The notes beneath the pieces are model-generated. The model was given only the letters and a program-made list of their open reading frames with translations, did no database searches and was not told the origin of the DNA. Shown here piece after piece: positions 14,601-27,525 of a stretch of 36,211 nucleotides of DNA. The first letter of the stretch is position 1. Each line of letters opens with the position of its first letter. The position numbers were made by a program, and so were the translations under genes. This stretch comes from Candidatus Woesearchaeota archaeon (GTDB lineage Archaea; Nanobdellota; Nanobdellia; SCGC-AAA011-G17; GW2011-AR18): contig JAGVZG010000023.1 in assembly GCA_018302765.1 (NCBI GenBank), positions 1-36,211 of the forward strand, given 5' to 3'.

Positions 14601-14703
14601 GGGCCCGTAGCTCAGCCTGGCGGAGCAATGGTCTTATATGACTGCTTATGGTACAAAAGTTTAAGAGAGCCATAGGTCGTGAGTTCAAATCTCATCGGGC
14701 CCA
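14601..14703 (+). tRNA. tRNA-Ile(UAU) with 29-nt intron at 37/38 (14639..14667)
   Basis: GGGCCCG/CGGGCCC acceptor, GCTC/GAGC D stem, ATGGT/GCCAT anticodon stem, anticodon TAT 14635-37; BHB central helix CTTA/TAAG with 3-nt bulges; GTGAG-TTCAAAT-CTCAT T arm. Confidence 0.92.
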
Positions 14704-14704
14704 T

Positions 14705-14811
14705 GCCCCGATCGTCTAGTCCGGTCAAGGATAAAGCCCTTTCGATTCAAGCTTTTAAAAAAGTTTGAAAAAAGAAAGGCTTTGACGCGAGTTCGAATCT
14801 CGCTCGGGGCA
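14705..14811 (+). tRNA. tRNA-Glu(UUC) with 32-nt intron at 37/38 (14745..14776)
   Basis: GCCCCGA/TCGGGGC acceptor, AAGCC/GGCTT anticodon stem, TTC 14741-43, central helix CTTT/AAAG, intron hairpin TTCAAGCTTTT/AAAAGTTTGAA. Confidence 0.92.
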
Positions 14812-16235: not shown

Positions 16236-17504
16236 TTATTTCTTAACAAAAGACCATCCAACTAATCTCCACCTTGTTCCAATTCTCCTAGAAATAGCAA
16301 TTTTACTACCAACTTCAGCACAGACAGGCCTTTTTAATTTAATATGTATCTTATTCTTTTCCAAACCAACAACTATACCTGCAGTGGTCATTGCATTAAC
16401 ATTAAGCATTAAAGGTTCTCCTTTTTTTATAGGATCAACTTTAGTTTCTTCTTTGCTCCCAATAACATGCTCAAGTAAATTAGGTTCTAATTTTAGTTCA
16501 GTCCAGACAGGAGGCAATTTGCCAGCTAATCCAACAACGCTGCCTGCTAATTGATCAGATTTTACAATCGCAGGATCTAATTTTGTTTGTAAAGCTATAG
16601 AGCCGCCAGGTTTAACGCTTTCAACATAAGAACCTCCAGTAACTAAAGAAACAATTTCTGTAGAAATTAAAATCCATTTCTCAGTTCCCTTCTCTTGCAC
16701 CAGCCTCCCAGGACCAATTTCAATTTTTTCACTAGTCTTCAAAATACCTTGCTTTAAAGCACCTCCAAGAACTCCTCCAACTAACTTAGAAATATCAGAT
16801 CCAGGCTTGTTAACGTCAAAACTCCTTGCAACAAACATTAAAGGATCTTTACTTAAATCTCTTTCAGGCGTAGGTATAAACTCCTCAATTGCCTGAATTA
16901 TACAATTTATATTTATATTGTGCTTTGCAGATACAGGAATTATAGGCGCACTTTCTGCTATAGTACCACTAACAAATTTTTTTATTTGATCATAATTTTT
17001 TAATGCTTCTTCCTTAGTAACTAAATCTACTTTATTCTGTATTATAACAACGTGCTTTAAACCTACTATCTCTAAAGCCATTAAATGTTCCTTAGTCTGA
17101 GGTTGTGGACACTCCTCATTTGCTGCAACTAGCAACAAAGCTCCATCCATGATAGCACTACCGCTCAACATAGTAGCCATTAAAGTCTCATGACCTGGAG
17201 CATCAACAAAACTTACAGTTCTTTGTTTCTCACACTTACTACATTTCTTTTCTCTTCCAAAACCATGTTCATCGCAATTATAAAAATCAACATCAGCGTA
17301 ACCCAATTTAATAGTAATTCCTCTCTTAACTTCTTCGCTATGCGTGTCTGTCCACTTTCCTGTTAAGCCCAACAACAAACTAGTTTTGCCATGGTCTACG
17401 TCTTTGGTTTCATAAGCAAAAGCTTAGTCAAGTCCAACAAGACCAATGTTAACTAATGGTTGAAAGCTATATTCTTGTTCATTTACTTTTTCTTTCTTTG
17501 CCAT
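16236..17504 (-). CDS. eif2g: Translation initiation factor aIF2 gamma subunit, interrupted by a 30-nt intron (exon1 17504..17432, exon2 17401..16236; 412 aa spliced)
   Basis: Exon1 MAKKEKVNEQEYSFQPLVNIGLVG; after removing 17402..17431 it reads HVDHGKTSL, then KWTDTHSEEVKRGITIKLGY, SFVDAPGHE, QPQTKEH, QNKVD, RWRLVGW. Confidence 0.93.
17402..17431 (-). other. Candidate BHB-type mRNA intron
   Basis: Sequence UUGACUAAGCUUUUGCUUAUGAAACCAAAG; central helix UUGG/CCAA, bulges AC|U and AG|A, exon-exon helix UGGUCUUG/CGUAGACCA, internal hairpin UAAGC-UUUU-GCUUA; contains an in-frame UAA. Confidence 0.85.
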
Positions 17505-27437: not shown

Positions 27438-27525
27438 CGAGCCCGGAGGGATTCGAACCCCCATCCTCTGGTATCTACAAATTTTACCGTAGCCAGATAT
27501 TCTGTCCAAGTTATACTACGGGCCC
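27438..27525 (-). tRNA. tRNA-Arg(ACG) with 14-nt intron at 37/38 (27473..27486)
   Basis: GGGCCCG/CGGGCTC acceptor, TCTGG/CCAGA anticodon stem, anticodon ACG at 27490..27488, BHB central helix CTAC/GTAG with GG|T and AT|A bulges, GGGGG-TTCGAAT-CCCTC T arm. Confidence 0.9.

Follow-up and report, generated by a model that had tools for sequence, protein, structure and literature searches.

How does an archaeon make translation initiation factor aIF2-gamma when the only copy of the gene is interrupted, inside its P-loop codons, by 30 nucleotides (nt) that carry a stop codon? This question is raised by contig JAGVZG010000023.1 of the Candidatus Woesearchaeota archaeon assembly GCA_018302765.1 (positions 1-36,211; the whole stretch of 36,211 nt is referred to as the window), which is contig C6 of a 1.02-Mb, 28-contig genome (G000) scored 100% complete. 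An earlier note, made from the letters of the window alone, had proposed that the insert is removed from the messenger RNA (mRNA) by the machinery that splices transfer RNA (tRNA). Based on the comparisons described below, we consider it very likely that the insert is a true archaeal bulge-helix-bulge (BHB, tRNA-type) intron in a coding sequence, spliced as proposed. The gene is laid out as follows:

17432 to 17504, minus strand: exon 1 of aIF2-gamma, from the ATG at 17504-17502 to C17432, comprising 24 codons and the first base of a His codon.
17402 to 17431, minus strand: the 30-nt insert, a predicted BHB mini-intron that brings a TAA into the frame at 17426-17424; five independent assemblies carry it unchanged.
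16236 to 17401, minus strand: exon 2 of aIF2-gamma, from the AC of the His codon through VDHGKT... to the stop codon at 16238-16236.

Read without splicing, the minus-strand open reading frame (ORF) starting at 17504-17502 has 26 codons (MAKKEK...NIGLVGLD; full translation MAKKEKVNEQEYSFQPLVNIGLVGLD) before it meets the TAA. Downstream of this stop codon the same frame stays open for 387 more codons to 16236, beginning with AFAYETKD-VDHGKTSLL.... Deletion of 17431..17402 fuses GGAC to ACGTAGAC, which creates the His codon CAC, restores the sequence NIGLVG-H-VDHGKT and yields a product of 412 amino acids (aa). The placement of this 30-nt removal is unique, since moving it by -1 gives GDVD and moving it by +1 gives GLVD. 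Only after removal of 17431..17402 is the G1 motif G-X4-GK[ST] intact (GHVDHGKT); the genomic reading does not contain it. The coordinates of the insert and its stop codon, the single placement that restores the motif and the length of the product had all been given in the earlier note, and each was obtained again on recomputation.

The assignment of the gene to aIF2-gamma, also made in that note, was borne out by profile searches. Exon 2 alone scored 590 bits against the NCBIfam equivalog NF003077 (cut-off 315; profile positions 18-411) and 585 bits against the equivalog TIGR03680 (cut-off 514.5; profile positions 14-407 of 407), and it also matched Pfam GTP_EFTU and eIF2_C. Exon 1 codes for MAKKEKVNEQEYSFQPLVNIGLVG and the C of CAC, and the profile positions absent from exon 2 fall in it. 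Public gene calls (NCBI, JGI, ENA, Logan) use an internal TTG or ATG start and give proteins of 378-380 aa without the P-loop, in the window at 16236-17378 on the minus strand.

The ends of the insert and the adjoining exon sequence can be arranged as a BHB motif with the following elements, all on the minus strand:

17438 to 17445, minus strand: 5' strand of the outer (exon-exon) helix, UGGUCUUG, pairs counted.
17434 to 17437, minus strand: 5' strand of the central 4-bp helix, UUGG, in exon 1, pairs counted.
17431 to 17433, minus strand: 5' bulge A C|U, with the predicted cut between 17432 and 17431.
17413 to 17426, minus strand: intron hairpin UAAGC-UUUU-GCUUA (inner helix h'), behind a 3-nt/4-nt internal loop.
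17404 to 17407, minus strand: 3' strand of the central helix, CCAA, in the intron, pairs counted.
17401 to 17403, minus strand: 3' bulge A G|A, with the predicted cut between 17402 and 17401.
17392 to 17400, minus strand: 3' strand of the outer helix, CGUAGACCA, in exon 2, with U17398 bulged.

The central helix pairs U17437-G17434 with C17407-A17404 and is flanked by the bulges A17433 C17432|U17431 and A17403 G17402|A17401. The outer helix pairs 17445-17438 with 17400-17392 in 8 pairs around the bulged U17398. This topology is the canonical hBHBh', with one bulge per strand and each predicted cut after the second bulge base; in archaeal pre-tRNAs, too, both cuts fall after the second base of the bulge (Marck and Grosjean, 2003; Xue et al., 2006). 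The intron hairpin has a folding energy of -4.5 kcal/mol (z -2.6). Every pair that the earlier note had drawn for the central and outer helices is present, as are the two bulges, the hairpin and the relaxed inner helix with its U17430-A17408 pair.

Further evidence comes from relatives. Taking the position of the G000 insert as site A, we searched with a pattern in which TTGGAC and CAAAGAYGT were fixed. It matched 17 of 240 genomes of the order and none in a reversed-pattern control; outside the order, one of about 330 genomes of the same class matched. A scan of genome contigs for the 3' end of the intron joined to exon 2 returned mostly bacterial genes reading K-D-V-D-H-G, together with at least eight loci of Woesearchaeota/Nanoarchaeia. 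Altogether, at least 19 distinct aIF2-gamma inserts were collected at site A, with lengths of 29, 30, 31, 32, and 35 nt, and homologous inserts of other sequence were present in 18 other species-level genomes. Among relatives with a readable 5' end of aIF2-gamma, eight have an insert at site A, two have one at a site 8 nt downstream (site B), three contain an intein, and the others are intact.

The collected inserts, 19 from aIF2-gamma and one from the paralogous factor aIF5B, share their geometry. Cutting at the BHB positions is predicted to restore G-H-VDHGK in all 20, and neighboring cuts do not, even though the length of the insert is not a multiple of three in 13 of them. In the alignment of the 20 sequences, 89% of the cells of the BHB core are paired, compared with 25-52% when the partners are slid by 1-3 columns; for the outer helix the value across homologues is 86%. 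Where the outer helix meets the 3' bulge, its closing pair (G17438-C17400 in G000) joins position 1 of a Val/Ile codon to position 3 of the His codon, which is synonymous. In the 19 aIF2-gamma genes this pair is G-C in 13 and A-U in 6, without a single mismatch, while the same two positions form a Watson-Crick pair in only 13 of 37 intronless relatives (G/T 20, A/T 8, G/C 5, A/C 3, A/G 1). Likewise, intron-bearing genes form 7.1 of the 8 outer-helix pairs, compared with 5.2 of 8 in intronless ones, with the gain at synonymous positions, and the Gly codon is always GGU in the former (paired 100% versus 27%). A central hairpin of 5-9 bp, differing in sequence by lineage, occurs in every intron (mean z -3.8 against shuffled sequences), and in several relatives the inner helix is contiguous, unlike the relaxed form in G000. 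The BHB pattern at site A exceeds chance. The earlier note had pointed to eif2g of related genomes as a source of evidence, and these genomes indeed revealed inserts at the same site, a patchy presence and a covarying closing pair.

When metagenomes were scanned for the spliced junction within its exon surroundings, 11 contigs matched. All are DNA contigs, of up to 79 kb, with ordinary aIF2-gamma genes of other archaea that lack the intron, and these matches are no evidence of splicing. In the aIF2-gamma gene of another relative (G016, locus L023), an in-frame TAA stands in place of one residue (CKI*RIV) with no insertion. This is not an intron and could be a sequencing error, a nonsense mutation or a case of recoding.

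In G000 aIF2-gamma is present as a single copy, the other matches being aEF1-alpha and aIF5B at 28-33% identity, and among the translational GTPase genes of this genome it is the only one interrupted. A second, intact eif2g, which the earlier note had named as the observation that would make this gene a pseudogene, was not found in the 100%-complete genome. The truncated aIF2-gamma ORF is present on 24 contigs, and the gene is found in metagenomes from groundwater. Five assemblies that differ in sample and assembler (ENA scaffold, k127, k141, and NODE names) match the window exactly over the 30 nt and the flanking bases. Because five independent groundwater assemblies carry it unchanged, the insert is not an artefact. 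Between pairs of intron-bearing genes the ratio of nonsynonymous to synonymous divergence (dN/dS) of exon 2 is 0.08-0.10, at a synonymous divergence (dS) of 0.4 to above 1. Purifying selection on exon 2 is therefore strong in lineages that kept the insert while diverging substantially, and a gene that is the sole copy in a complete genome and evolves at a dN/dS of about 0.1 is not a pseudogene.

The enzymes expected for BHB splicing are encoded as well. G000 has one EndA, encoded on contig C12 (L004:1474-2112, minus strand), with the N and C domains (PF02778 and PF01974) and a match to positions 10-177 of the 177-position profile TIGR00324, and is therefore assigned a single alpha-type unit; it also has one intact RtcB (565 bits), encoded on contig C27. 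Alpha4-type EndAs with an L3 loop have been described in several DPANN lineages, alongside heavily disrupted tRNA genes (Kaneta 2018, PMC5829648). The sequence of the insert, its geometry, conservation and covariation, the selection on the gene and the presence of both enzymes were established directly. The comparative data and the EndA and RtcB genes support the proposal of the earlier note that this DPANN archaeon may splice a translation-factor mRNA with its tRNA machinery.

From these sequences we infer cleavage, ligation, circularisation and dependence on EndA. In the pre-mRNA, UUGG of exon 1 would pair with CCAA of the intron, exon 1 and exon 2 would form the outer helix, and the intron would fold into its hairpin. 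EndA, presumably as a homotetramer of its single alpha-type unit, would cut at C17432|U17431 and G17402|A17401, and RtcB would ligate the exons, so that the His codon CAC is formed and the G1 motif reads GHVDHGKT without interruption. The predicted spliced mRNA reads ...UUGGAC|ACGUAGACC... without the 30 nt, and the predicted junction contains ...GGACACGTAGAC...; the freed 30-nt intron would probably be circularised, with ...CCAAAG|UUGACU... at the point of closure. As the unspliced mRNA yields only a 26-residue peptide, synthesis of the factor would depend on the tRNA-splicing machinery.

Several observations weigh against this explanation. The protein collection contains no spliced full-length form; the annotated entries (P0001, P0121-P0123) are all of 378-380 aa. 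In G000 the inner helix beside the central helix is weak and consists of the U17430-A17408 pair alone, followed by an internal loop and the 5-bp hairpin. Thermodynamically, the BHB is not preferred: the model structure has -11.3 kcal/mol, compared with -15.6 for the minimum free energy (MFE) structure, and the z-score of the whole region is only -1.9. Neither RNAalifold nor MFE folding returned the BHB, and it was therefore scored by explicit pair counting. Nearest-neighbor models penalise bulges, and bulged motifs are usually not favored by thermodynamic folding. The central helix is paired in 100% of the 20 homologues, but most of these bases were fixed by the search pattern (TTGGAC, CAAAGAYGT), so that this invariance is partly by construction. 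The BHB core contains only one truly covarying pair, and related genomes are not independent observations. A 411-aa protein of the same 90% cluster (P0128) was considered as a spliced product and rejected. Its first ~85 residues resemble those of the intronless relative G011 and the remainder those of G000; given this mixed match and its origin in protein-level assembly, it was read as a chimera of two species.

Could the gene be expressed without splicing, or not be expressed at full length at all? Ribosomes might hop over the insert, as in T4 gene 60, or read through the TAA. In the hop version, take-off would occur at the GAC before the TAA and landing at a second GAC, made up of the final base of the intron and AC. 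In G000 alone this is attractive, as GAC-TAA and an in-frame landing GAC lie 27 nt apart and the hairpin begins at the stop codon, similar to gene 60. However, the hop product GLDVDHGK would have a G-X5-GK loop instead of G-X4-GK[ST], and the GAC/GAC match exists only in G000 among the homologues; a matched-codon hop that restores G-X4-GK[ST] is available in none of the 20, six of which have no matched codons at all. Nor would hopping need a conserved BHB geometry or a covarying closing pair. Readthrough would put 10 extra residues inside the P-loop and is excluded by the 13 of 20 insert lengths that shift the frame. We regard bypass or readthrough as highly improbable. Very unlikely, too, is a decaying pseudogene, or a split gene whose real product is the P-loop-less exon-2 ORF (380 aa from the TTG at 17378), although gene callers and NCBI annotate just this 378-380-aa ORF and the unspliced frame ends after 26 codons. 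A GTPase without the G1 motif is unable to bind GTP, and the P-loop-less protein would lack this motif. Furthermore, G000 has no other aIF2-gamma, exon 1 is conserved and aligns collinearly with uninterrupted orthologues such as that of G011, the low dN/dS between intron-bearing genes speaks against decay, and the same interruption is kept in at least eight families of the order with exon 2 open for about 387 codons.

That the 30 nt are absent from the DNA of the organism, owing to an assembly or sequencing artefact, is a general possibility in metagenome-assembled genomes with nothing further in its favor; the identical insert and flanks in five assemblies and the differing homologous inserts in 18 other species-level genomes make it next to impossible. 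The insert might also be a regulatory switch or the relic of a mobile element, with partial or conditional splicing that tunes the supply of aIF2-gamma to the tRNA-processing capacity. The patchy presence in close relatives points to repeated gain or loss, and the same P-loop has other guests, namely introns at a second site, a LAGLIDADG intein and, in aIF5B, an intron at the same position; selfish elements aimed at conserved sites typically behave in this way. No observation bears on regulation, though, and no homing-endonuclease gene was found beside aIF2-gamma in the window, where the adjoining genes are DUF192 and two unassigned ORFs. We consider this idea unlikely; it is a refinement of the splicing explanation and no alternative to it.

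The distribution of the BHB insert suggests a dynamic history. The aIF2-gamma tree follows taxonomy, with family f1 as a supported clade, and the intron is scattered over it. G000 and G002 form an intron-bearing pair, but their close relative G011 (84% identical in exon 2) is intronless with an intact N-terminus; G026, on the other hand, bears the intron though nested among intronless sisters. Such a scatter implies repeated precise loss, repeated gain, or both. Within one genus, one sister pair (G021, G025) has an insert at site A and another (G023, G012) has one at site B (GHVD|HGKT; GTTGAT|...|CACGG), with lengths of 31 nt in G023 (L014) and 30 nt in G012 (L015). Restoring the frame at site B requires a relaxed BHB, in which the central helix has 3 of 4 pairs and a G.A mismatch and the inner helix is good; the perfect-looking UUGA/UCAA register would take out 28 or 29 nt and break the frame. 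At both sites the insert comes after an exon GUUG that pairs with CAA of the intron, which fits, as a speculation, a movement guided by pairing.

Insertions in P-loop codons are not confined to these two sites. In the Woesearchaeota genome G571, which does not belong to the sampled set, a 32-nt BHB intron is predicted in aIF5B (L101:174-244, minus strand) at the homologous position of the P-loop (MIRQPIITVLG-H|VDHGKTSLLD), with a strong inner helix of 9-10 bp and a weak outer helix; the aIF2-gamma of this genome is apparently uninterrupted (open frame of 431 aa). In three relatives, G004 (L020), G041 (L190), and G046 (L206), aIF2-gamma is interrupted at GK|T (...CHN|TT...) by an intein that contains a LAGLIDADG domain, in open frames of 930-998 aa, with Pfam matches to Intein_splicing and LAGLIDADG_3 in G004. 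With the introns at sites A and B, the intein and the aIF5B intron, the P-loop codons are a hot spot for three kinds of insertion. It is conceivable, albeit doubtful, that the insert is one of a mobile family of BHB mini-introns that seek out P-loops and spread among and within Woesearchaeota genomes and between aIF2-gamma and aIF5B, splicing of protein genes by the tRNA machinery being routine in the phylum. Such introns could move by reverse splicing or by recombination, guided by pairing of the intron CCAA/CAAA with the exon GUUGG/GUUGA. If so, production of the translation apparatus would be tied to the activity of EndA and RtcB.

A de novo genome-wide scan of the AT-rich genome G000 for BHB motifs combined with ORF fusion gave 32,641 candidates at first and 1,609 later. 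Most of them were places where neighboring genes adjoin, and the aIF2-gamma intron did not stand out. Two adjacent tRNA genes in the window (14601-14811, plus strand) and a third (27438-27525, minus strand) contain inserts of about 30 nt (introns), owing to which they were found by Rfam and missed by ARAGORN. The intron of tRNA-Ile(UAU), 2.7 kb from that of aIF2-gamma, ends in UAAG-AG|A. A kinship of the two introns (shared TGACT, GCTTATG, AAAG) was judged weak, since by a rough estimate a 7-mer and a 5-mer shared between 30-nt AT-rich sequences are unconvincing where tRNA introns are many. On contig C26 (43219-43242, minus strand), 24 positions match the 3' two-thirds of the aIF2-gamma intron and the first bases of exon 2 with 23 identities (blastn-short E 3e-5). 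This stretch falls in the coding sequence of an unrelated, uninterrupted ORF (...SFVYETKDGKKITIKP...), and the match may be a coincidence or a hint at the origin of the intron.

The closest known counterpart is the intron in the pre-mRNA of the pseudouridine synthase gene cbf5 in Crenarchaeota (Watanabe 2002; Yoshinari 2006; Yokobori 2009, PMC2738675). It, too, is a tRNA-type BHB intron within a coding sequence, in a conserved, essential gene related to RNA or translation, and it is patchily distributed among relatives, with gain and loss. Its removal by the tRNA splicing endonuclease and ligase was shown experimentally; for aIF2-gamma the same route is predicted. The two cases differ in the gene and in the superphylum (DPANN Woesearchaeota), and while the cbf5 intron has a published link to hetero-oligomeric EndA, G000 has a single alpha unit. 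Moreover, the codons split by the aIF2-gamma intron are those of the P-loop, and related introns occur in a paralogous GTPase. As of 2020, the only archaeal mRNA BHB intron known besides that in the 5' untranslated region (UTR) of HVO_1309 was the one in cbf5 (PMC7714728), in agreement with the precedent cited in the earlier note. In the literature searched, to late 2026, we found no papers linking aIF2 or DPANN mRNAs with BHB introns, so the earlier remark that no such intron was known in aIF2-gamma holds for this literature.

The tRNA BHB introns of DPANN and Thermoproteales (Kaneta 2018, PMC5829648; Fujishima and Kanai 2014, PMC4033280) share the motif, the enzymes and the size class of about 13-50 nt. 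The host RNA of the aIF2-gamma intron, however, is an mRNA whose exon helices are made of codons with visibly constrained synonymous positions, and the outcome of splicing would be a reading frame instead of a cloverleaf. HVO_1309 of Haloferax volcanii (Schwarz 2020, PMC7714728) likewise has an EndA substrate inside an mRNA, but its intron lies in the 5' UTR and leaves the reading frame uninterrupted. Inteins in the P-loops of archaeal GTPases and ATPases resemble the insert as selfish insertions in the same conserved motif. They comprise hundreds of residues and are removed at the protein level, whereas the aIF2-gamma insert must be removed at the RNA level because of its stop codon and, in relatives, its often frame-shifting length. 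A looser analogy is the IRE1/RtcB splicing of XBP1/HAC1 mRNA in eukaryotes, where an endonuclease and a ligase independent of the spliceosome remove a short intron and change the frame. RtcB is the ligase for XBP1 in animals. The endonuclease is a different one, though, recognizes stem-loops instead of a BHB and acts in a regulated stress response.

Published splicing within archaeal protein-coding sequences concerns a single gene, cbf5. The interruption of aIF2-gamma is confirmed as an observation, and its interpretation as a pre-mRNA BHB intron in a gene other than cbf5 is supported by the comparisons. It would add a second well-supported gene, from another superphylum, essential for translation initiation, present in dozens of genomes and with relatives in a paralogous GTPase. 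DPANN genes of this type are mis-annotated or would count as broken, as the public call of a 380-aa protein without P-loop illustrates here. With a 68-nt substrate (17452..17385), one EndA and one RtcB, the aIF2-gamma intron could serve as a clean test system for the action of an alpha-type EndA on relaxed mRNA motifs. If the splicing proposed here is true, splicing of mRNA by the tRNA machinery would look less like a curiosity and more like a recurrent feature of intron-rich archaea.

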